Virus record (IMG/VR): IMGVR_UViG_2225789004_000001
Location: 1 to 39,414 of that record
DNA: 39,414 nucleotides
Strand: one strand, 5' to 3'
Origin: a virus
Below the pieces are notes generated by a model that did no database searches, was not told where the DNA came from, and was given only the letters and a program-made list of their open reading frames with translations. Shown here in pieces: positions 2,099 through 22,229 of this stretch; the stretch's first letter is position 1; every line of letters begins with the position of its first letter. A program made the translations under genes and the position numbers.

Positions 2099-4144
2099 TC
2101 ACCGCCTGCCGGGTTTCAACTGAAACGACCATGTTGTTTTCTTGGAAGTTGAATTTGAAACATACCGTTTTTCGAATCCCTGTAAATCCATTTCAACGGA
2201 AAAGTTACCGCTTGATAACGGTTTATATCCATTTTCGTCACACCAAATAGAATACTCATATTTGTAAAAATGAGCGGCTGTAACAGACTTTAAATATTCG
2301 TTTAATTCAGCCTTTTCGCCATAACCGTTGAGGAACTCTACGACCGGATTTGACAAGATTTCATAGGCTTTTTTCATCTCAATCACACTCTCGGAAATAG
2401 TGAATCCGTATTTTTCCATTCGCCAATATCCTTTTATTGCCTGCTGTATTAGATATTCCAACGATTCGTGCGTTGTCAGTTTATCTATCATTTTATCATC
2501 TTCATCAGTCGAGGTGAATTTTGCAATAAACGGTATCAAGATGATTCTTCGAAGAAAACCATCCGAAGTATCGTCTGTTCTTGGCGGACGGTTTCCGGCG
2601 AAGATGAATTTTGCACAATTTGAAAATTTAATCGGTGTTTGGAATTTTATATCCACTGTCACCGAATCGCCAGTGACGAGTTTCTTAAAAAGGTTTGCAC
2701 CGGACACATATCGCATATTTATGTCACTGCCGATATTGATTAATTTACCGATTAATTTATGAGTGAAAAATTGCTTATTCAAATCTTCAAAATCCAATGA
2801 TTCAATATTATTACCGCCGAAAGCTTTCGTCACTGCTTTTAAGAAAGTGGATTTGCCGTTTGCACCAGAGCCGATTAAGAAAAACGATTTTCCTTTTTCA
2901 TTTCTTGGATTCAGGCAGAAACCAATCATTTCATAGAGAAGTTTTTCTAAATCTTCGTTGTTGCAAGTGATGTCTCTCATAAATTCGTCAAATACCGGCG
3001 ATTTCGCATTTGGATTGAAATCAATCGGTAATTTAAAGAAACAAATCCTGTCCGGTGAATAATCATACACCTTTCCGGTGCGGTTACTCCAAACGCAATT
3101 GCTAAAACCAATAAATTCATACAACTCCGCATCTTGAATATCAAAATTTGGAATCGCTTCTTCGGTTGTTAAGATGAAATCAAAAATTTCATTTATTTCA
3201 TTGCGTTTGAGATTGAAAATCGTATCCATGATTAAAGATTTTAAATTATCATTACGATAAATGCCATTTTGATACGCATACGGAACTCCGTTTATCTTTT
3301 TTATGTGTAAAACATTAATCAGACATTCTGCCGCATCTTGGTGCTTAAAACCATAATGCGGTTCGACAAACTATAACTTATCCGCTTTACCGCCAGTCGC
3401 AACCGTTGCCTTTTCAAATGTCTTATCCCGAAGAATCGCATCCATTTCCTTTTTCGATAATTTCTCTTCAAAAATCATTCCATTGATGATTCGACAAACT
3501 GTTTCAACATCATCTCGATTCATCAACTTTTGAAGTCCAAGAGCAAACTCAGAAAGCGTATGATTCCGGCTTCCTTGCTTCATTTTGAAAATGGATTCTC
3601 GTTTTTTGAAATAATAGAAGAAAAACGGAAGTGGGGACAATTCATCAAACGAATAAATTTCACCAAGAAAATTGCGGTCAATGGTATCCAGTCGAATCGG
3701 CTCATAGTCCGGATTTTTGCCTTGTTCACCGCCGAGTTTATATTCACATTCCAAACCTAACGCACAAATATGTCCTTGCGGTATTTTTTTTGGAATATTT
3801 CCTCTTGGGTTCTCAATCAAATCAGGATTCTTAAAATAGATGTGGTATCCTTTTTCAGTTTGAACGACATTATATTTCAAATCAATTTCGAACATTTCTT
3901 TTTCGACAATTAATTTCAAAAGACTGACTGCGAATTTACCTTCTTCTTCGTTATCGAAATCAAGAACAACAATGCCGTTTCTAATCTCTCCGGCAATGAA
4001 GTTTTCAGTTTCATCAACATTATAAAGCAACGGTGCTGAACGTGGTTGAAGCGGCACTTTCTTTTGCTCTGCATGCCATGCTTTCGCACTTAATTTGAAA
4101 AAACCATTATAAAGAGATTGAATTTTTGGATTTTTTAAGTCCAT
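2099..4144 (-). CDS. Prim-Pol primase fused to D5/P4-type helicase, with one in-frame TAG at 3371..3373
   Basis: ORFs 3371..4153 and 2099..3229 are in the same frame (924 nt apart). The 47 codons between them have no stop. N-terminal part has VVLDFDNEEEG and GYHIYF (Prim-Pol-like). C-terminal part has Walker A GSGANGKST. ATG 4144 is preceded by GAGTGATAAAA. Confidence 0.7.
3371..3373 (-). other. In-frame TAG inside the primase-helicase
   Basis: Context ...ADKL-TAG-FVEPHYGFKHQDAAECLINVLHIKKINGVPYAYQNGIYRND... The frame stays open into the helicase domain. Confidence 0.75.
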
Positions 4145-4149
4145 TTTTA

Positions 4150-4407
4150 TCACTCATCTGGTAAACGCTTTGCCAATACTCTTTCTTCGTGTTGTCGTTC
4201 AATGGATTGTAAAAATCTGGAAATCCGATACCGAATTTCTTTAATATCGTTTTGTTCCAATTCTTCGCCAACTTCCTCTATTTTTATGTGAAACAATTTC
4301 GGATTATCTTTCTGAACCGAAACTTTAACCATCATTACGATTTGAGAATCTAAATCTGTTGAAACATTTACCGGCGAACTCTTTTTTTTGAAAATATTAT
4401 TAAACAT
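4150..4407 (-). CDS. Hypothetical protein
   Basis: ORF track 4150..4578. ATG 4407 is preceded by GGAG. The upstream part of the ORF overlaps a hairpin-containing spacer. Confidence 0.5.
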   Translation of the reverse strand: MFNNIFKKKSSPVNVSTDLDSQIVMMVKVSVQKDNPKLFHIKIEEVGEELEQNDIKEIRYRISRFLQSIERQHEERVLAKRLPDE

Positions 4408-4481
4408 GATGAAAACTCCGAATTTTAATCTGGAAAACAACATATACGGATTAAAGTTTATTAAATTTCCGTATAAGAAAC

Positions 4482-4525
4482 ACCGCTTCCGGATTAAAGA
4501 TTTAAACAGCGTTTCCGGAAGCGGT
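4482..4525 (-). terminator. 11-bp perfect-stem hairpin in a 136-nt spacer (attenuator or regulatory hairpin)
   Basis: accgcttccgg (4482..4492) and ccggaagcggt (4515..4525). Confidence 0.4.
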
Positions 4526-4543
4526 TTTGTCGTTTTTAAAAGG

Positions 4544-5011
4544 TTATTTCCAAATACCGAATTTTCGGGTGGGGTCAATGGCTTGCTTTCTGAAATCTTG
4601 GAGTGATTTTAAGTCCGCCATACAGCCAGTGACGTGTTCTTCGATACCGGAAATAACTTCATTCACAAATTCGATATGGTAGTGACGAATGAATTTATTG
4701 AGTGTTTTTAATTCCCATTTGCCAGAAATGGGAGTGTAGCCTTCTTCTTCATTAGAGTGTTTCGCTCTTTCTTGGATAAGGCGTTCAATAAATTCTCGTT
4801 CATCGGAATCCATGAATGTAAGAGCGGATTTCAGAACTAAATCTTCAAATCCGCTCGCATCAATTGCATAGTTGTCGGAATCAAACGAATATCCGTCTCG
4901 TGATTCCAATATTTCTAAAATTGCGTCATAAATAGAATCCAACTCCGACTCAAAATAAGTCGGAGTGTTTTCTACTGATGAACTTTCAATTCGTTCATCC
5001 ATTTCAATCAC
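4544..5011 (-). CDS. Acidic hypothetical protein
   Basis: ORF track. SD ACGGTGATTGAA upstream. Confidence 0.7.
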   Translation of the reverse strand: MIEMDERIESSSVENTPTYFESELDSIYDAILEILESRDGYSFDSDNYAIDASGFEDLVLKSALTFMDSDEREFIERLIQERAKHSNEEEGYTPISGKWELKTLNKFIRHYHIEFVNEVISGIEEHVTGCMADLKSLQDFRKQAIDPTRKFGIWK

Positions 5012-5014
5012 CGT

Positions 5015-5812
5015 TTACTGCGGCATTGTGCATCTTGCAATAATTACATCGGCTTGAATCGGAACTTCGTATTCATAATTGCTTCCGTTTTCAAGAGACC
5101 AGAAATAAAGTTTGCCGAATTTATCGCCGAACTTAAATTCATAATCTTCGCCGAAACTCTTTTCCAGTTTGTTCATTATTGCTAAACATTCCGAATCTGT
5201 GATTGGTTTAATACAATTATCGTTGCCGAAACTTTCAATTTGAGCGAATCCGGCGGCTTGAACTCCACCGCACATGAAATAAATGATTTCGTTGTCTTTC
5301 TTGGAAGCGATTTCATTTACCAAGAAATTAATTGATGTTTCATCATTGACATGATGGTGGATGATGGATGTTACCGGATTGCCGAAAATATTTGTTGTTT
5401 TCAATTTTTCAGAAATCCATTTCTGCCTTTGTTCGCTGATGTCAAACTCATTCCCTTTTTCATCCAAAGAAATTGAAATGGAATGTCCGGCTGTCAGTTG
5501 TGTCGTTTCTGCATCTTCATATAAGACTTCATAAACGATGATTTTGTTTGAGTCCAACATCGCTTCTTTTGCCGCATCCGGAACATCGTCCGTCATAATC
5601 ATATGCATCATAAATTCGACTGATAAATCTTCCAGATTTTTGCTGTCTTTCAAATTGATTGCTTCAACTTTCGTCAATCCATACTTTTCCTTCATCATCG
5701 GATTTAAGAAAAGTGTTCTTTCACCGGAATCAACGATTTCCTTTAACGCAAGAATATCAGATTCGGTTTTAACGAGCAGGTTGTAAGCAATTCCAGATTT
5801 TAAATTTTTCAT
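5015..5812 (-). CDS. Hypothetical protein
   Basis: ORF track. GGAGTGAAAAAAT upstream of the ATG. Confidence 0.75.
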   Translation of the reverse strand: MKNLKSGIAYNLLVKTESDILALKEIVDSGERTLFLNPMMKEKYGLTKVEAINLKDSKNLEDLSVEFMMHMIMTDDVPDAAKEAMLDSNKIIVYEVLYEDAETTQLTAGHSISISLDEKGNEFDISEQRQKWISEKLKTTNIFGNPVTSIIHHHVNDETSINFLVNEIASKKDNEIIYFMCGGVQAAGFAQIESFGNDNCIKPITDSECLAIMNKLEKSFGEDYEFKFGDKFGKLYFWSLENGSNYEYEVPIQADVIIARCTMPQ

Positions 5813-8871: not shown

Positions 8872-9025
8872 AGATTTCTTTGAATTATTTGGTGCGATTT
8901 CCCTTTTCATCATTCTCATGATAATCAGAGTCCTGATTGATTGGAAATTCTGGTTGATGTTTTTGATAATTTTGATTATCTCAATTCTTCTTGGAATTGT
9001 TAATATTTCAATTAATTTTAATTGA
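8861..9025 (+). CDS. 54-aa membrane protein
   Basis: Hand translation: MSFKDFFELFGAISLFIILMIIRVLIDWKFWLMFLIILIISILLGIVNISINFN. Confidence 0.45.
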   Translation: MSFKDFFELFGAISLFIILMIIRVLIDWKFWLMFLIILIISILLGIVNISINFN

Positions 9026-9026
9026 G

Positions 9027-9064
9027 ATATAGGCGAAATGCCTATATTTCTAACCCTATTTTTT
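9027..9064 (+). terminator. Intrinsic terminator-like hairpin
   Basis: atataggc (9027..9034) and gcctatat (9040..9047), then a T-rich tail. Confidence 0.5.
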
Positions 9065-9097
9065 ACAGTAAAAGGATAGACTATTTGGACTAAAAAT

Positions 9098-9514
9098 ATG
9101 TGGCAAATTGCTGACATGATTCTGGCACGGAAGATAAGCGAATCTTTGCGGATGAAATCCGATTTCCGGATAAACGGAGTTTCGGTTATTTTCATTTCCG
9201 CAGATAAAATTTTTCCATATCATCTTGATTTTTTCTTGGAAGATGGCGACACTATCAATCTTGATTTCTTGGTTAATCGCACTGTCGATATAGATTTCGA
9301 TTATGAATACTATGATGAGAGAGAAGAATTTATTTTCGAGATTATTGAAATGAGTTCCGGCTTGAATCAGTTCGATAAAGAGAAAAGGAATAGGATGTTA
9401 TTGAAAGAAGAATATTTATCGCCGCCGGAACTAAAAAGATTGCTCGCAATAGAAGGATTTTATGAATATCAAAAATTCAGAGTAAAAAACGGACAAAGAG
9501 TATATATAGGATGA
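9098..9514 (+). CDS. Hypothetical protein
   Basis: ORF track. Its 3-prime end overlaps the next promoter module. Confidence 0.65.
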   Translation: MWQIADMILARKISESLRMKSDFRINGVSVIFISADKIFPYHLDFFLEDGDTINLDFLVNRTVDIDFDYEYYDEREEFIFEIIEMSSGLNQFDKEKRNRMLLKEEYLSPPELKRLLAIEGFYEYQKFRVKNGQRVYIG

Positions 9515-9557
9515 AATACTATACTATATTGTAGGTAAATTACCTAATTGGAGTGAT
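9494..9557 (+). promoter_or_regulatory. Conserved promoter module
   Basis: TATATATA 9501..9508, 13 nt, TACTATATTGTAG 9522..9534, TAGGTAAATTACCTA hairpin, GGAGTGAT 9550..9557. Confidence 0.65.
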
Positions 9558-9562
9558 AAGAA

Positions 9563-9751
9563 ATGATTTATAGAGTTTGTTATAGCAGTATTCATTATGA
9601 TGCCGAAGAAGATGATGAATTTTCCGCATTTGATTCGGATTATTTCTCAACCAGAGAAAAAGCAGAAGAGTTTGCCAAGAAGGTCAGCGGCGATGTCGAT
9701 GAAATCACCGAAGAACATTTTGAAAGATTGAGAGTTCCGTTGAGAGGTTAA
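9563..9751 (+). CDS. Acidic hypothetical protein
   Basis: ORF track. Confidence 0.7.
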   Translation: MIYRVCYSSIHYDAEEDDEFSAFDSDYFSTREKAEEFAKKVSGDVDEITEEHFERLRVPLRG

Positions 9752-9754
9752 AAA

Positions 9755-10144
9755 ATGTCAAAATTTATAAACCTCAACACAAATCCGCACAATCGTCAAG
9801 TCGGCGATTGTGTTGTTCGTGCAATCGGGATGGCAACGAACCAAACGTGGGATGAAACCTTCGATGAGTTGTGCCAGATTGCCAGAGAAACAAAATCCAT
9901 GCCTGATGGAGATGATGTTTACGGACTTCTCTTGGCAAGACATGGGTTTCAGAGGATTCCGATTATTGTCAAGAAAAATTCAAAACGACCGACCGTCAGT
10001 CAGATGTGCGAACTTTGTCCAAAACAAGAATTTATCGTTTGCAAAGTGGCACATCATCTTGTCGCCGTGTCAAGAGATGGATATTATGATACATGGGATT
10101 CCGGCGATAAACCGCTTTATGCGTATTTCAAGAAGGTGGATTGA
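9755..10144 (+). CDS. Putative papain-like Cys/His peptidase
   Basis: VGDCVVRAIGMA (candidate nucleophile Cys) and AHHLVAVSRDGYYDTWDSG (candidate His/Asp). The fold assignment rests on motif resemblance only. Confidence 0.4.
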   Translation: MSKFINLNTNPHNRQVGDCVVRAIGMATNQTWDETFDELCQIARETKSMPDGDDVYGLLLARHGFQRIPIIVKKNSKRPTVSQMCELCPKQEFIVCKVAHHLVAVSRDGYYDTWDSGDKPLYAYFKKVD

Positions 10145-13295: not shown

Positions 13296-13805
13296 ATGGC
13301 ATCTTCTCAATTACCAAAAACTCTGGAATTTTGGCTCTCGGATAAAGGGCTTCTCATTTTGAATAGTTTCGGTAGAGCCGGAATGACTGTTAAAGAAGTG
13401 TGTGAAAAAATCTCTATTTCTCAAAAAATATTTAAAGCATGGATGGAAACACACCATTCGATTCGAAATGCGTTTAATCTGGAAGAACGGAATTATATTG
13501 ATATTGTTGAAGGCAAACTTTTAAAAGCCGTAACCAATGAAATTGAAACCTACAACGAAAAAAGCGTTGTTGAAAGAATTGTTTATGATTCCGAAGGTAA
13601 ACAAGTTGGTAAGGTTGTCACAAAAAAGACAGTTGAAAAGCCGATTAAAATCGAATCTGAATTAATGAAATTTTATCTCACCAATCGTGCGGCAGATAAA
13701 TGGGCGTATTCACCTGAACCAATTAAGAAACGAAATGTTTCAAAATTAGAGGAAATTATGCAAGAATGGGTATCGGAAAGCAATAAAGAGAGTGATGAAG
13801 AATGA
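13296..13805 (+). CDS. terS: Terminase small subunit-like HTH protein
   Basis: N-terminal HTH (GMTVKEVCEKISISQKIFKAWM), then ...IVEGKLLKAV... and ...FYLTNRAADKW... typical of TerS proteins. Positioned upstream of terL. Confidence 0.5.
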   Translation: MASSQLPKTLEFWLSDKGLLILNSFGRAGMTVKEVCEKISISQKIFKAWMETHHSIRNAFNLEERNYIDIVEGKLLKAVTNEIETYNEKSVVERIVYDSEGKQVGKVVTKKTVEKPIKIESELMKFYLTNRAADKWAYSPEPIKKRNVSKLEEIMQEWVSESNKESDEE

Positions 13806-14521
13806 AAGTTTTAGTTACCGGAACAACACACGGAATTGGACATTCAATTGCAAGGTTATTCTTGGAAGAAGGACATTTGGTTGTCGGGTTGGATATTGAA
13901 CCTGAAATCGACCCTTTAAGTGCCGAGTTTGCCGATTGGAAATTTTATCAATGTGATGTCGGAAAGCCGGAAGAATTGCCGGACGAATCTGATTTTGAAA
14001 TCATCGTAAATAACGCCGCAACTACGGATGAAAAATCCGCAATTCAGACCAATCTTCTTGGTTATGTGAATGTTGGTGAAAAATACGCTTTCCAAGAAAG
14101 AATTAAATCAGTTGTAAACATTTGTTCAATATCATCAGTTAGTGGAATTGAATTGCCGAATTATTGCATTTCAAAAGGCGGTAATTTAGCATATTCACAA
14201 AACTTATCTCTTCGATTAGCACCAAGAGCAACAGTAAATGCGATTATCTGCGGCGGTGTGATTACTAAAATAAATCAAGAGATTTTAGATGACGAGAAAC
14301 TTTACCAAATGTGTAAAGACGAAACCCTTCTTGGAAAATGGTGTCAGCCAAGAGAAGTGGCAGATTTAGTTTATTATTTGACAGTTGGAAATAAATCTAT
14401 CACTGGACAAACTATAACTATTGATAACGGTGAATGTGCCAAATTCAATTTTATTGGAACTTCCGAAGTTAAAAATGAATTTTATAAATCACAGTTTAAA
14501 AGGAGTGAATTATATGAGTAA
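13802..14521 (+). CDS. Classical short-chain dehydrogenase/reductase (SDR)
   Basis: TGTTHGIGHSIA (TGxxxGxG), NNAA, catalytic Ser region CSISSVSG, YCISK (YxxxK). Confidence 0.85.
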   Translation: MKVLVTGTTHGIGHSIARLFLEEGHLVVGLDIEPEIDPLSAEFADWKFYQCDVGKPEELPDESDFEIIVNNAATTDEKSAIQTNLLGYVNVGEKYAFQERIKSVVNICSISSVSGIELPNYCISKGGNLAYSQNLSLRLAPRATVNAIICGGVITKINQEILDDEKLYQMCKDETLLGKWCQPREVADLVYYLTVGNKSITGQTITIDNGECAKFNFIGTSEVKNEFYKSQFKRSELYE

Positions 14522-15080
14522 AACAAACGAAATTTCTGTTCTCGATATTGATATTGAACAAATTAAAAAATATGAAAACAACCCAAGAGAAAATGCGGAA
14601 TCAATTCCTTATGTTGTAAACTCAATTAAGGAATATGGGTTTAAAAATCCAATTGTTTTGGATTCCAACATGGTTATTATCGCCGGACATACAAGATTTG
14701 AAGCCGCAAAGATTCTTGAAATGAAAACAGTTCCGTGTATAATTGCGGAAGATTTGACGGAAGAGCAGGCACGAGAGTTCCGATTAATTGACAATAAAAC
14801 TGCGGAATTGTCTTATTGGAATTTTGATAAACTTTTAGAAGAGATTTCGCATTTGGAGTGCGATTTAACGCAATATGGATTCAATGACATTCAAGATAGT
14901 ATTCGAGATTTAGATGATGTTGATGAAATTACAGAAGATAATTATAAGAATCCGGAACAAGCGAAAAAGAAATGTCCGGCTTGCGGTCATGTTGATTTCG
15001 TTGTAAATTTCAGAATTGTTAAAAATGAAGCAGTATCATCAACACCAACTTTCGAAGAACCTGACGAGGAATTTGAGTGA
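14514..15080 (+). CDS. ParB N-terminal (ParB/Srx) domain protein with C-terminal Zn ribbon, DpdB-like
   Basis: YENNPRENAESIPYVVNSIKEYGFKNPIVL..IIAGHTRFEAAKILEMKTVPCII. CPACGH near the C-terminus. ATG 14514 follows AAAGGAGTGAAT. Confidence 0.75.
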   Translation: MSKTNEISVLDIDIEQIKKYENNPRENAESIPYVVNSIKEYGFKNPIVLDSNMVIIAGHTRFEAAKILEMKTVPCIIAEDLTEEQAREFRLIDNKTAELSYWNFDKLLEEISHLECDLTQYGFNDIQDSIRDLDDVDEITEDNYKNPEQAKKKCPACGHVDFVVNFRIVKNEAVSSTPTFEEPDEEFE

Positions 15081-15844: not shown

Positions 15845-16540
15845 ATGATTGAAATGATACAGAATGAATTGCTGTTTTTTGTCACCATGTTGGTGAACTT
15901 CTCCGGCATCTTGATTGCTTATAAATTGTTTGGTAAACAAGGTCTTTTCGTATGGATGGGGCTTGCGATTGTTATAACTAACATCGAAGTCCTCAAATGC
16001 GTGGATATGTTCGGATGGGCTGTCACGTTAGGAAATGTGATATACGGCACAACTTTCTTGGTTACGGACATCCTTAACGAGAAATATGGTGTAAAAAAAG
16101 CACGGATGGCGGTTATGGTCGGATTCTTTGCGATGATTGTTTTCACGGTTATCATGCAGGTAAATCTTCTCTTCGAAGTGAATGCCGCCGACTTTTCCAA
16201 AGATGCTTTTGAAACAATCTTCGCCGTTCTGCCAAGAATTGCAATCGCTTCTATTATTGCTTATCTTGTCGCAAATCTTATTGATGTTCAAGTTTATCAT
16301 TTCATCAAAAAGGCATTGCCGGACGATAAGTGGTTATGGGTGCGAAACAACGGCTCATCCCTCTGCGGACAAGCAATCGACACTGTTATTTTTGGAATTA
16401 TCGCATTTATTGGACTTTACGAATTTCCGATAATTTTCCAACTCACAATAACAAGTTATATCTTAAAATTTGTGATTACTCTTTGCGAAACACCGTTTTT
16501 ATACATTGCGAAACGAATAAAGCCGATTTACGATGAGTGA
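15845..16540 (+). CDS. yhhQ: YhhQ/DUF165 (VUT) family queuosine-precursor transporter
   Basis: Polytopic membrane protein. GNVIYGTTFLVTDILNEKYGVKKAR and SSLCGQAIDTVIF match YhhQ signatures. Confidence 0.7.
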   Translation: MIEMIQNELLFFVTMLVNFSGILIAYKLFGKQGLFVWMGLAIVITNIEVLKCVDMFGWAVTLGNVIYGTTFLVTDILNEKYGVKKARMAVMVGFFAMIVFTVIMQVNLLFEVNAADFSKDAFETIFAVLPRIAIASIIAYLVANLIDVQVYHFIKKALPDDKWLWVRNNGSSLCGQAIDTVIFGIIAFIGLYEFPIIFQLTITSYILKFVITLCETPFLYIAKRIKPIYDE

Positions 16541-17867
16541 AATATTTAATCCAAAGCAAAAGCGTTCTTTTAGACGTTTTATTCAAAAAGCGTTTAAAAG
16601 AATTAACTTTTTTGAAGGGTCGGTATCATCTGGAAAGACCTACATCACATTGATTCTTTGGTCTCTCTGGGTGATGTCACGACCGCCGCAATCAGTCCAT
16701 CTTATGTTCGGAAGAACTATCACTTCTTTGGAACGTAATTGTCTGCTTCTTTTGACGGAACTGTTCGGCGAAGAAAATGTTCAATACTCTGTTTCTTCGA
16801 AAAGGATGCGACTATTTGGCAGGCTTGTCTGGTTAGAAGGTGCGGATAACGAAAGAGCCAGAGCGAAAATTCAAGGTTTAACGATTGATTCAGTGTATGG
16901 TGATGAACTCCCACTCGTTCCGGAAACCTTTTTTAACATGGTTCTTTCTCGTATGAGGATTCTCGGCTCGAAAGGATTTTTTACCGGAAACCCCGATGAC
17001 CCGACAAATTACGTTAAGAAGAATTGGATTGACCGCATTGAAGAGGACGATTTAGATATGATGGTTGAACATTATCATATCTGCGATAATTCGATGTTTC
17101 TTCCGGAAGGTTATATTGAAAATTTATAGAAAGAATACACTGGCGTGTTCTTCAAACGTTACATAGAAGGTCTTTGGGTTGTTGCCGAAGGTGCAGTTTA
17201 TCAATTGTTTGGCGATAATTCAGACGATTATATTATTGATTTGAAAGATTACAATTTTGATAATTTAATGTATATCAACATTGGCATAGATGTTGGTGAA
17301 ACAGAATCCGGAACTGCGTTCACAGCAACCGGCTTTGAGAAAAATTATGCCGGCATTGTTGCTCTGGATGCCGACTGGATTAAAGGAAATGCCTTAACCG
17401 ACCCCACCGCACTTTACGAAGCGTTTCATGCTTTCTTGGCACGGCAACAATATGACGGTGTGAAGGTAAAAGCGATTTATTTCGATAAGGCTCAACAATT
17501 TTTAAAACGTGGTTTAGTAACTTATCTTTCTTCCAAAGGAATCAACATCCAAGTTTACGATAGTTTAAAATATCCTATCAACGATAGAATTATGGTTACA
17601 AACGCATTATTTTCAACATATAAATTAAAAATAAGCACACGATGTCCGCATTTGATAAAAGCGTTTAAAGAAGCAGTTTGGAAAGCGAATACAACGCCGA
17701 TGGAACGACTTGATGACTTCACTTCTGACATTGATAGTTTAGATTCGTTTGAGTATTCAATCGAAGATGGAATGTATAACATCGTCACCTTTTTACAGAA
17801 ACCAAAAATCAGATTTCCAAAAGAAAATTTAATGATAAAGTTACAAACGCAGAGGTTATATGAATGA
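16533..17867 (+). CDS. terL: Terminase large subunit, with one in-frame TAG at 17127..17129
   Basis: ORFs 16533..17129 (Walker A GSVSSGKT, Walker B VYGDE) and 17145..17867 (nuclease half, IGIDVGETESG) are in the same frame (612 nt apart). Codons 17130..17144 (KEYTG) are open. Confidence 0.85.
17127..17129 (+). other. In-frame TAG inside terL
   Basis: ...PEGYIENL-TAG-KEYTGVFFKRYIEGLWVVAEGAVY... Confidence 0.8.
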
Positions 17868-20375: not shown

Positions 20376-21014
20376 ATGTCAGGAAACCAGTCTGGCTCTT
20401 CGAAAGAAGGTGAATCTGGTGCAGGTGATTTTACACCTGAACAGCAGAAAAAACTTGATTCTATTATTCAAACAAGAATTGGGGAAGTCTCTGCGAAAAA
20501 GGATGGCGAAATTAAAGAACTTCAAAAGAAGTTATCTGAAATTCCGCAAGATTTTAACGCAGAGAAATGGAACAAAATCCCCAAAGATTTCGATTTCGAT
20601 TTTTCAAAAATCCAAAAATCAGAGCCGCCAAAAGAAGGCGACATCGGTGCAGTAATCGCCGCTGAAATGGATAAATTGCGTAAAGAACATGAAAAGAGTA
20701 TGGCAGAATTGACCGGAAAATTCGAATCCGTGAGAGCGGAACGAGATTCTGAAATTCTTAACGCCAAACTTAAAGGCATGGGTGTGGACGACAAGCACTT
20801 GAAATTTGTCGGTTCAGAAGTCAATGAAGCTCTGAAAACACAATCCGGTAAACCTTTCGAGGAAATTGTTGATACTGTTTTGAAAGACAACGGTTTAAGC
20901 AAAGTTCCGGCACAAGGTAACGGCGGTCAAAGAATGGGTAACCCTCCGAACCCGAATAAACCAACATCATTCACCGAAGCCATTATGCAGGCTATGGGTG
21001 ATAAGGATAAATGA
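20376..21014 (+). CDS. Scaffolding protein
   Basis: Charged, coiled-coil-like 212 aa protein directly upstream of the capsid gene. Confidence 0.55.
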   Translation: MSGNQSGSSKEGESGAGDFTPEQQKKLDSIIQTRIGEVSAKKDGEIKELQKKLSEIPQDFNAEKWNKIPKDFDFDFSKIQKSEPPKEGDIGAVIAAEMDKLRKEHEKSMAELTGKFESVRAERDSEILNAKLKGMGVDDKHLKFVGSEVNEALKTQSGKPFEEIVDTVLKDNGLSKVPAQGNGGQRMGNPPNPNKPTSFTEAIMQAMGDKDK

Positions 21015-21020
21015 TTCAAT

Positions 21021-21977
21021 ATGGCAATTACACTTTTACAGATGAAAGAAACTTCTGACAGCACTCTCACACCGTGGGTTATTGACGAGTTCGTCACCGA
21101 CCCTCTTTTGGAATACCTTCCTTTCGACAATACGGTTAAAGCAGGCGGTCAGGGGCAGTCTCTTTCCTATTCCTACAACCGTGTTGTAAAATACGGAACG
21201 GCACAGACCAGAGCGTTGAACACTGAATACACTCCTGACATGGCAGAAACCAAAAGAGTGACTGTTGATTTGAAACAATTCGGCGGCTCTTTTGAAATTG
21301 ACCGTGTTTTGCAGAAGCACGAAGTTCAGGTTATCGCATCTCGTTTCCAGTTTGAAGCAGAACAGAAAATCAAAGCAACCAGAGCGTTGTTTGCTCACAT
21401 GTTCATTAACGGCGATGCAGAAGGCGACCCGACACAGTTCACCGGCATTGACAAAATCGTTACCGGCACTTCTACTGAATATATCCCTGCCGCAACAGTT
21501 GATATTTCAACCGCAGCCGCTGTCGAAGCAAACGCAAAGGATTTCATGTTCGACCTTCGTCAGGCACTCAAACCATTGAACGCAACCCCCACGTTCATGC
21601 TCGTGAACCCTGACCTTTTCGCAACTTTCCAGTCCGTTGCCGATGAATTGACCGGATTCACAACCAGAAAAACCGATTTAGGAACTGAAATTTTGTCTTA
21701 CGGCAGAATCGGTATCCTCGAAACCGGAAACAGACCCGGAACGAATGACCCGATTATTCCGACCGCCGCCGATGGAACGACATCCGCATACTTTGTCCGT
21801 CTCGGTCTCGATGGTGTTCACGCCGTCTCTCCGTCCGGCATGAGTCCTGTCGATGTTTATATGCCTGATTGGTCTGCCCCCGGTGCAGTCAAACGTGGTG
21901 AAGTCGAAATGCTCGGTGCTGTTGCCGTCAAAGACACACGTTCAATCGCCGCTTTCAGAAACATCAAGGTGGTCTAA
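21021..21977 (+). CDS. Major capsid protein
   Basis: 318 aa. Position after the scaffold gene. A terminator or attenuator follows two genes downstream. Confidence 0.6.
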   Translation: MAITLLQMKETSDSTLTPWVIDEFVTDPLLEYLPFDNTVKAGGQGQSLSYSYNRVVKYGTAQTRALNTEYTPDMAETKRVTVDLKQFGGSFEIDRVLQKHEVQVIASRFQFEAEQKIKATRALFAHMFINGDAEGDPTQFTGIDKIVTGTSTEYIPAATVDISTAAAVEANAKDFMFDLRQALKPLNATPTFMLVNPDLFATFQSVADELTGFTTRKTDLGTEILSYGRIGILETGNRPGTNDPIIPTAADGTTSAYFVRLGLDGVHAVSPSGMSPVDVYMPDWSAPGAVKRGEVEMLGAVAVKDTRSIAAFRNIKVV

Positions 21978-22229
21978 ATGTCTGTTGATGGCAAACCCGA
22001 CCAAGTTTCCGCAATTGTCAATGGTGAAATTCCGAAGATTACTGACATTTCAGAAATCGAAGCCGGAACACTTTATTACGCAATTGTGAAAAAGCAGAAC
22101 CAAGACATCCAGAGAACGCTCGGTCTTGTTTACGGAAACGTAATCACCGACTATGCCGGAAATGGATACGAATTGGTTTTCGCTTTCACTCCGTTCTACG
22201 CACCCAACGACATCGTTTCCACACTTTAA
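21978..22229 (+). CDS. Small head-associated protein
   Basis: ORF track. ATG immediately after the capsid TAA. Confidence 0.5.
   Translation: MSVDGKPDQVSAIVNGEIPKITDISEIEAGTLYYAIVKKQNQDIQRTLGLVYGNVITDYAGNGYELVFAFTPFYAPNDIVSTL

Follow-up and report, generated by a model that had tools for sequence, protein, structure and literature searches.

A short-chain dehydrogenase/reductase paired with queuosine-precursor importers in phage DpdA cassettes and preQ1-controlled bacterial operons, a candidate functional alternative to the queuine lyase QueL

The viral record IMGVR_UViG_2225789004_000001 was analyzed over its positions 1 to 39,414 (the whole stretch of 39,414 nucleotides, hereafter the window), which correspond to a phage genome that encodes a DNA polymerase, a primase and an Erf protein. 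[quoted passage not shown] Comparative analysis showed that the phage has very probably captured this SDR along with the importer, as a dedicated part of queuosine-precursor salvage that feeds DpdA. We also lean, with reserve, towards the more specific reading that the window SDR could replace the radical enzyme QueL and convert queuine into preQ1 (7-aminomethyl-7-deazaguanine). Its relatives could form an SDR-type "queuine lyase" family that performs this step without radical S-adenosylmethionine (radical-SAM) chemistry, is widespread in gut and rumen Bacillota with a riboswitch-controlled YhhQ or QrtT partner, and was captured repeatedly with the importer by phages for their anti-restriction bases (dPreQ1, formyl-dPreQ1 and possibly more); we regard this wider proposal as evenly poised.

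A search of 5.8 billion proteins revealed a clade of short SDRs (212-220 aa, 45-68% identity) from Bacillota metagenome-assembled genomes (MAGs) and phage-like contigs. A clade profile built from 18 members was scored against 1.84 billion representative proteins, and recovered 139 of them at E<=1e-30; relaxing the threshold to E<=1e-10 raised the number to 25,273, indicating that the clade is small and well separated from the SDR background. The clade is distinct, neither FabG nor random cargo, and the only domain fusions among its representatives were zinc-ribbon extensions and one probable chimera. In a neighbour-joining tree the phage SDRs fell into several groups interspersed with bacterial SDRs. 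No mention of the clade was found in the full-text literature on deazaguanines and queuosine salvage, a search that did not cover the primary QueL paper or closed journals; this agrees with the view of an earlier note, made from the window sequence alone, that no SDR belongs to the known deazaguanine pathways.

The strongest partner of these SDRs is the importer. Open reading frames (ORFs) were called in 80 loci from GTDB species representatives, where at least 520 relatives exist, and in 32 viral loci, and were then searched with an iterated YhhQ profile. YhhQ adjoined the SDR or was at most two genes away in 70 of the 80 bacterial loci, and in 29 of the 32 viral ones it was either the neighbour of the SDR or about two genes away at most. 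Both genes were co-directional in all 64 bacterial loci with the strand scored, and most adjacent pairs had gaps of -4 to +55 nt. No other recurrent operon partner was found in the bacterial loci, since a Pfam search of all 149 co-directional partners gave a top family with only 4 members. Most bacterial modules consist of the transporter and the SDR only, as in a Bacilli MAG chromosome where SDR and the YhhQ domain Vut_1 form an isolated pair (loci L003-L008). In the window, yhhQ is downstream of the SDR in the same cassette, which physically clusters the SDR with a queuosine-salvage gene.

Ten bacterial loci had no yhhQ beside the SDR. In Granulicatella balaenopterae, which lacks an adjoining yhhQ, the SDR is located 156 nt upstream of the tRNA-guanine transglycosylase (TGT) gene tgt (PF01702, E=8e-159), whose substrate pocket reads GGLSVGE, a signature of preQ1-type TGTs (PMC11570991). 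A QueK-type nucleoside hydrolase and an energy-coupling factor (ECF) S-component were found beside the SDR in three of the ten loci, a PreQ1-I aptamer lay directly upstream in two, and in two others the contig ended approximately 100 and 360 nt upstream of the SDR. In locus L030 a PreQ1-I aptamer (5126-5161) is followed by ~660 nt (to 5824) without an intact yhhQ before the SDR, a stretch that may be a decayed transporter gene.

The evidence for a link to QueL comes from operons with QueK. The published C. difficile operon consists of a PreQ1-I riboswitch followed by queK, qrtT and queL: queuosine is hydrolysed to queuine by QueK, preQ1, q and Q are taken up through QrtT, and queuine is turned back into preQ1 by the radical enzyme QueL (Yuan et al. 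2019, as related in PMC11477304, PMC11130926 and PMC11570991). A metagenome scan anchored on the QueK-like protein found beside the SDR yielded 80 loci, mostly from the human gut. In 54 of them the order was queK-ecfS (qrtT-type)-SDR, while in 10 the third gene encoded a 232-aa protein with a CAWGKCAFC motif and an NCBIfam match to the archaeosine radical-SAM protein RaSEA (E=8e-11), here regarded as QueL-like; the remaining loci reached a contig edge or had no third co-directional gene. The SDR and the QueL-like gene were never found together in the 80 loci, and no QueL-like gene was detected in the other 120 loci. Clustered at 90% identity, the SDRs of these operons gave nine groups, and their identity to the window SDR was 36-47%. 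Two unrelated genes alternating in one slot of one riboswitch-controlled operon are the classical signature of non-orthologous displacement.

PreQ1 riboswitches were found in front of both types of operon. A descriptor of the aptamer (P1 stem, loop and the tail A[AC]AAAAC[AT][AG]) detected 21 PreQ1-I-like aptamers in 120 loci and none in shuffled sequence, and 16 of the 21 were immediately 5' of yhhQ in yhhQ-SDR operons. With a relaxed descriptor restricted to operon start regions, aptamers preceded 32 of 78 yhhQ-SDR operons, with no hits in reverse complements or shuffles. The yhhQ-type aptamer has the form AGACAG-UUCGUGACCAUC-CUGUCU-AUAAACAAAACUA, with an AAGAUG… variant, as seen in L012 (5150-5186) and at ~30 similar sites upstream of yhhQ, and several copies are followed by terminator hairpins. 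The full-length alignment of RF00522 to the five yhhQ-type aptamers that were run and reported gave 25-30 bits, below the gathering score of 39, so that standard Rfam annotation misses them: in the first loci Rfam at gathering level showed no riboswitch near yhhQ-SDR, and the aptamers were recovered in E-value mode and with the descriptor. A covariance model for this type was dropped because MAFFT misaligned the divergent copies, and the descriptor with its controls was judged sufficient. For the queK-qrtT-SDR operons, the descriptor placed an aptamer 5' of queK in 67 of 74 testable regions and in none of the reverse-complement controls; four of these operons (49.6-54.7 bits) and one QueL-type operon (41.3 bits) scored above the RF00522 gathering score. 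Clade members are thus part of the preQ1 regulon, in the sense that their operons lie behind preQ1 riboswitches, which applies to the relatives and not to the window copy.

The phage relatives are found among genes for deazaguanine DNA modification, and at least six phage layouts with the SDR-YhhQ pair were distinguished. Layout A is the order of the window, shared with its sister phage L001, and layout B reads ParB-DpdA-SDR-279-aa protein-YhhQ (ParB being outside the fetched stretch of L089). Layout C is composed of YhhQ-SDR-(phrog_30343)-QueF-QueC-QueD-QueE-FolE. In layouts D and F the locus of YhhQ-SDR also contains DpdA3 and a formyltransferase, several kilobases away in D and adjacent in L002, a 48-kb contig with phage-like gene content and the order formyltransferase-Vut_1-SDR. 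Layout E combines a 330-aa DpdA with YhhQ-SDR, and the locus L122 has the order YhhQ-SDR-QueC-QueF-QueD-QueE-FolE-DpdA3-formyltransferase. The phage SDRs thus co-occur with DpdA1-like or DpdA3 proteins, with a DpdN-like formyltransferase and sometimes with the full FolE/QueDECF set. A 277-aa protein cluster (c1) was negative in hhalign against DpdA, and tblastn identified it as DpdA3 by its 48% identity to Flavobacterium phage immuto_2-6A, where a DpdA3-formyltransferase (DpdN) pair is followed by thymidylate kinase (Tmk) and QueF. Since DpdN was proposed to formylate preQ1 or dPreQ1 (PMC10516641), we conclude that the phage clusters which contain the SDR-YhhQ pair have downstream enzymes with a need for preQ1.

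Published phage DpdA clusters (Hutinet 2019, PMC6884629; Cui 2023, PMC10516641) share DpdA and YhhQ with the window, and DpdA3, the DpdN-like formyltransferase and FolE/QueDECF with the SDR relatives. They differ in that those papers describe no SDR, whereas here the salvage pair of YhhQ and SDR would supply the precursor, replacing or adding to de novo synthesis. A homologue search of the window detected no FolE, QueC, QueD, QueE, QueF, bacterial TGT, QueK or QueL-like protein, and the lack of FolE, QueC, QueD, QueE, QueF and QueL leaves the window with no other source of the base, which speaks for the salvage reading.

The ORF itself is a genuine classical SDR. Its protein matched the Pfam families adh_short_C2 (PF13561, E=8.7e-23) and adh_short (PF00106, E=7.9e-17) above cut-off, and an AlphaFold2 model computed from an 18-sequence alignment had a Rossmann-type order of strands and helices, with a mean predicted local distance difference test score (pLDDT) of 90 and a predicted template-modelling score (pTM) of 0.88. 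The motifs listed in the earlier note are all present in the translation: the cofactor motif TGTTHGIG (TGxxxGxG), VNNAAT (NNAA), the catalytic Ser and YxxxK. The N-S-Y-K tetrad is intact (N84, S109, also S111, and Y121-C-I-S-K125), and D31 closes strand beta-2. A Foldseek search with the model returned many classical SDRs with template-modelling scores (TM) of ~0.78, and a sequence search of the PDB gave a best match of E=2e-14; all were generic classical SDRs with 21-27% identity, so no function could be transferred from them. EntA-type and cumate cis-diol dehydrogenases were among these structural and sequence neighbours. DNA and protein searches of GenBank phages found no near relative (best protein match, 29% identity).

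Conservation was computed across 138 distinct clade members in window numbering. D31, N84, S109, Y121, N146, E185 and N197 were invariant, and K125 (95%), W180, D208, E211 and F217 were conserved in at least 95% of the members, while no Cys column exceeded 50%. An Asp at the end of beta-2 is usually read as specificity for NAD(H) rather than NADP(H). The invariant Asp therefore indicates NAD(H), which is typical of oxidative reactions, and the intact tetrad indicates CH-OH/C=O or C-N/C=N chemistry.

On this basis the pair can be regarded as a two-gene salvage module, with an importer (YhhQ/QPTR or an ECF QrtT-type component) and the SDR as its putative enzymatic half, for which queuine is the predicted substrate, preQ1 the predicted product and NAD+ the predicted cofactor. 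The transporter would import queuine, whose structure has an allylic cis-diol on a cyclopentene joined through a secondary amine. The SDR would oxidize this cyclopentenediol side chain with NAD+, acting on either a CH-OH (allylic or vicinal) or the allylic C-N carbon. The activated side chain could then be lost through beta-elimination (via the alpha-carbon), or a conjugated imine could be hydrolysed, in either case freeing preQ1. This base would be used by a preQ1-type TGT in bacteria and by DpdA in the window phage, giving dPreQ1 in DNA. The detailed oxidation-elimination chemistry is proposed with less confidence than the replacement of QueL itself. The GH4 and GH109 glycosidases and the sugar-nucleotide 4,6-dehydratases use NAD+ for the transient oxidation of a ring CH-OH, which makes a neighbouring group eliminable; they and cis-diol dehydrogenases such as EntA follow the logic proposed here, the likeness of the latter to the SDR being at the generic classical-SDR level.

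The comparison with QueL illustrates what the two enzymes would share. In the QueK operons the SDR is, like QueL of C. difficile, the third gene after QueK and the ECF S-component behind a PreQ1-I riboswitch, and both enzymes would provide a preQ1-type TGT with preQ1 made from queuine. In contrast, its fold and chemistry are unrelated: it is a cofactor-dependent enzyme with the N-S-Y-K tetrad, and neither an iron-sulphur or radical-SAM Cys motif nor similarity to QueL was found in it, so that it is not a member of the QueL family. It would in principle be insensitive to oxygen, its partner is in most cases YhhQ and not the ECF component, and it is present in phages, whereas no QueL-like gene was found in the phages examined.

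Several observations weigh against the conversion of queuine to preQ1 by the window enzyme. Characterized YhhQ proteins mostly carry preQ0 or preQ1 and only some carry queuine (PMC11570991). No preQ1 riboswitch was detected in the window, and the 232-aa protein that alternates with the SDR was taken as a probable QueL from its operon position and the sub-threshold RaSEA match. The window SDR and that of L001 also have W46 and F48 where the family has Y46 and H48, and NNAA in place of the family NNAG, and they have lost the C-terminal Trp (W219), with a tail of 15-20 residues instead. In the nearest relatives (the type B phages L089, L090, L091 and L095, together with L009 and L010) the C-terminal Trp is lost too and the catalytic Lys 125 is a Gln; the window and L001 retain Lys125, and the window also the rest of the tetrad. 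These changes suggest that SDRs linked to DpdA1 and ParB could have altered catalysis or specificity, and since the subclade departs from family-conserved positions, the window enzyme may have drifted to another substrate.

Four other explanations were weighed. The one considered first takes the SDR as an alternative preQ0 reductase, an analogue of QueF, in which YhhQ would import preQ0 and the SDR would reduce its nitrile to preQ1. It would fit with the transport of preQ0 by E. coli YhhQ (PMC5372724), with the many gut Bacillota that lack QueF yet need preQ1 (PMC6593275, PMC11130926), and with the need of DpdN-type phages for preQ1; moreover, QueF and the SDR would both deliver preQ1, and both occur in phage deazaguanine clusters and behind preQ1 riboswitches. 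However, a bona fide QueF shares the SDR gene cluster in at least seven phage loci (L097, L102, L111, L113-115 and L122), so the SDR is not a QueF substitute. Behind QueK, whose product is queuine, it alternates with QueL and not with QueF. The Rossmann fold of the SDR is not the T-fold of QueF, there is no conserved Cys for the thioimide mechanism, and the cofactor site is of the NAD type (Asp). This idea was rejected on the co-occurrence with QueF and the missing Cys, and we consider it improbable; to our knowledge, there is no nitrile-reducing SDR. A broader explanation is that the SDR is an accessory of queuosine salvage with another substrate, such as epoxyqueuine, a glycosylated or nucleoside form or a reactive cyclopentenone by-product, with preQ1 released by another enzyme or the base merely trapped metabolically. 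The regulon and operon evidence fixes the pathway and not the reaction, some phages have extra genes beside the SDR, encoding the 279-aa protein (type B) or phrog_30343 (type C), and candidate pocket residues are altered in the window subclade. Nevertheless, the module is limited to transporter and SDR in most bacterial loci. In the QueK operons, moreover, nothing but the SDR alternates with the QueL-like gene, and an SDR that did not form preQ1 would leave these operons without that step. We therefore hold an accessory role to be rather unlikely, though credible.

The two remaining explanations correspond to suggestions of the earlier note, which had suspected a tie to deazaguanine genes from the coupling of the SDR to the ParB-like and DpdA-like genes. 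The coupling is as described (ATGA and GTGA overlaps and one of 8 nt), and the neighbourhood comparison that the note proposed bears out the tie, since yhhQ is a recurrent neighbour of the clade, as is dpdA in phages. The mechanisms that it offered fared worse. Tailoring of a deazaguanine before or after its insertion, leading to a new phage-specific DNA modification, would be in line with how tightly the SDR is coupled to ParB and DpdA, both in the window and in layouts A and B, and with the subclade-specific substitutions, including K125Q in type B, and the neighbouring 279-aa protein. Yet the family is overwhelmingly bacterial, with the pair in hundreds of bacterial genomes that have no dpdA in the flanks examined and that often carry it behind preQ1 riboswitches, and the phage copies are scattered among the bacterial ones in the tree. 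Side-chain redox to a new DNA derivative is thus unlikely as the primary role, and we give the tailoring explanation a slim chance; the evidence points to side-chain chemistry on the free imported base (queuine to preQ1), before DNA insertion. A pterin-like precursor was also disfavoured, as the pteridine reductase model PRK09135 scored 55 bits against a cut-off of 288 over SDR residues 103-211 only, and the tightest partner is an importer and not FolE or QueD. Finally, the SDR could be a FabG-like lipid or generic redox moron unrelated to deazaguanines, in agreement with its best PHROG and NCBIfam names, which are FabG-like. Against this, it fell below every FabG cut-off in NCBIfam (81.6, 74.1 and 68.2 bits, with cut-offs of 222, 297.75 and 301, respectively), glucose dehydrogenase, another of its library names, was likewise far under the curated cut-off, neither the window nor the related loci examined contained fab genes, and the linkage statistics and riboswitches contradict it. 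Unrelated cargo was discarded on the recurrent linkage and these scores, and a lipid or generic function is barely credible.

If the SDR does convert queuine to preQ1, the consequences would extend beyond this phage. Queuine is a micronutrient drawn on by gut bacteria and their animal hosts, and current reconstructions of gut-microbiome queuosine metabolism recognize indirect queuine salvage by two markers only, QueK and QueL (PMC11130926). Another enzyme for this step, unrelated to QueL and apparently commoner (54 SDR against 10 QueL-like operons in the QueK-anchored sample), would change the predicted queuine consumers in the gut and extend the preQ1 riboswitch regulon by a new gene. As an enzyme free of iron-sulphur clusters, it should express easily and could be useful for obtaining preQ1 from queuine. 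For phages, DNA hypermodification would be fuelled by a scavenged environmental micronutrient through a portable two-gene module, which would explain the base supply of phages with DpdA but without synthesis genes. As far as the literature reached shows, a known pathway step would thereby gain a new enzyme family, and the hypermodification of phage DNA a novel way of obtaining its precursor.

The features of the cassette are listed in Table 1. The ATG of the SDR overlaps the terS stop as ATGA, the ParB-like ATG at 14514 has an AAGGAG site ahead of it and overlaps the end of the SDR by 8 nt, and the GTG of the DpdA-like gene at 15077 overlaps the ParB stop as GTGA. The yhhQ gene begins 7 nt past the DpdA stop, and its own stop overlaps the start of the large terminase.

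Table 1. Genes of the SDR cassette in the window and the evidence for their assignment.
Feature	Position	Strand	Evidence and remarks
Terminase small subunit-like, upstream cassette boundary	13296-13805	+	phrog_309, E=2.7e-11; junction sequence
Classical SDR, 239 aa	13802-14521	+	ATG start; PF13561, 8.7e-23; AlphaFold2 pLDDT 90; clade, context and residue conservation
ParB_N-domain protein, 188 aa, with C-terminal CxxC segment	14514-15080	+	PF02195, 1.9e-10; phrog_620, 2.8e-49
DpdA-like DNA guanine transglycosylase (predicted), 253 aa	15077-15838	+	phrog_887, 9.6e-35; tblastn
YhhQ/QPTR (COG1738) queuosine-precursor transporter, 231 aa	15845-16540	+	PF02592 (Vut_1), 1.1e-47; TIGR00697
Terminase large subunit as two ORFs, downstream cassette boundary	16533-17867 (16533-17129, 17145-17867)	+	Terminase_6N, 1e-09; phrog_2, 4e-21; phrog_10250, 2.1e-10

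The match of the window YhhQ to TIGR00697 (E=5.6e-60) reached 202.6 bits, with a cut-off of 51. In tblastn searches the window DpdA matched phage genes annotated as queuine tRNA-ribosyltransferase or "7-deazaguanosine inserting enzyme" with 24-34% identity. The ParB_N protein recurs directly upstream of the DpdA1-like gene in the window, L001, L090 and L091, where it was annotated, and in L095 a ParB relative upstream of DpdA was found as a tblastn match only. In PADLOC the ParB-like protein had no match to DpdB, and its matches were confined to the ParB domain found in ParB-methyltransferases; it may assist DpdA as a partner for DNA targeting.

Additional proteins were observed in the phage loci. 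The 276-279-aa protein between SDR and YhhQ in layout B (L089 913-1752, L090 4060-4899, L091 8656-9495 and L095 5256-6086) had no match in Pfam, PHROG, the PDB or GenBank phages. By eye (…RN…, WIDANE and SEDVY) it resembles a GT-A glycosyltransferase, a likeness confirmed by no search, which would hint at a further hypermodification. Some layout C phages have a phrog_30343 protein of 172-180 aa between SDR and QueF (L111 8685-9203 and L097 8672-9214). An HNH endonuclease domain is fused to QueD in L111 (10477-11403, with the order HTH-HNH-PTPS), and in L102 an ORF (8872-10065) joins an HNH domain to a stretch matching phrog_5949, which is labelled GTP cyclohydrolase and is the PHROG family of the L111 QueF. 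These fusions suggest homing-endonuclease insertions in phage preQ1 genes. The contig L002 also carries a ROOL RNA (222.9 bits) and three tRNA genes, at 4308-4931 and 3909-4278.

The large terminase of the window is split into an N-terminal ATPase ORF and a C-terminal nuclease ORF, with 15 nt between them. Since the gene is divided likewise in the sister phage L001 (5314-5922 and 6058-6669), this is probably not a sequencing error. Positions 21001-22000 of the window are locally GC-rich (0.48, against ~0.36 elsewhere) over the ORF 21021-21977, located in the structural gene region.

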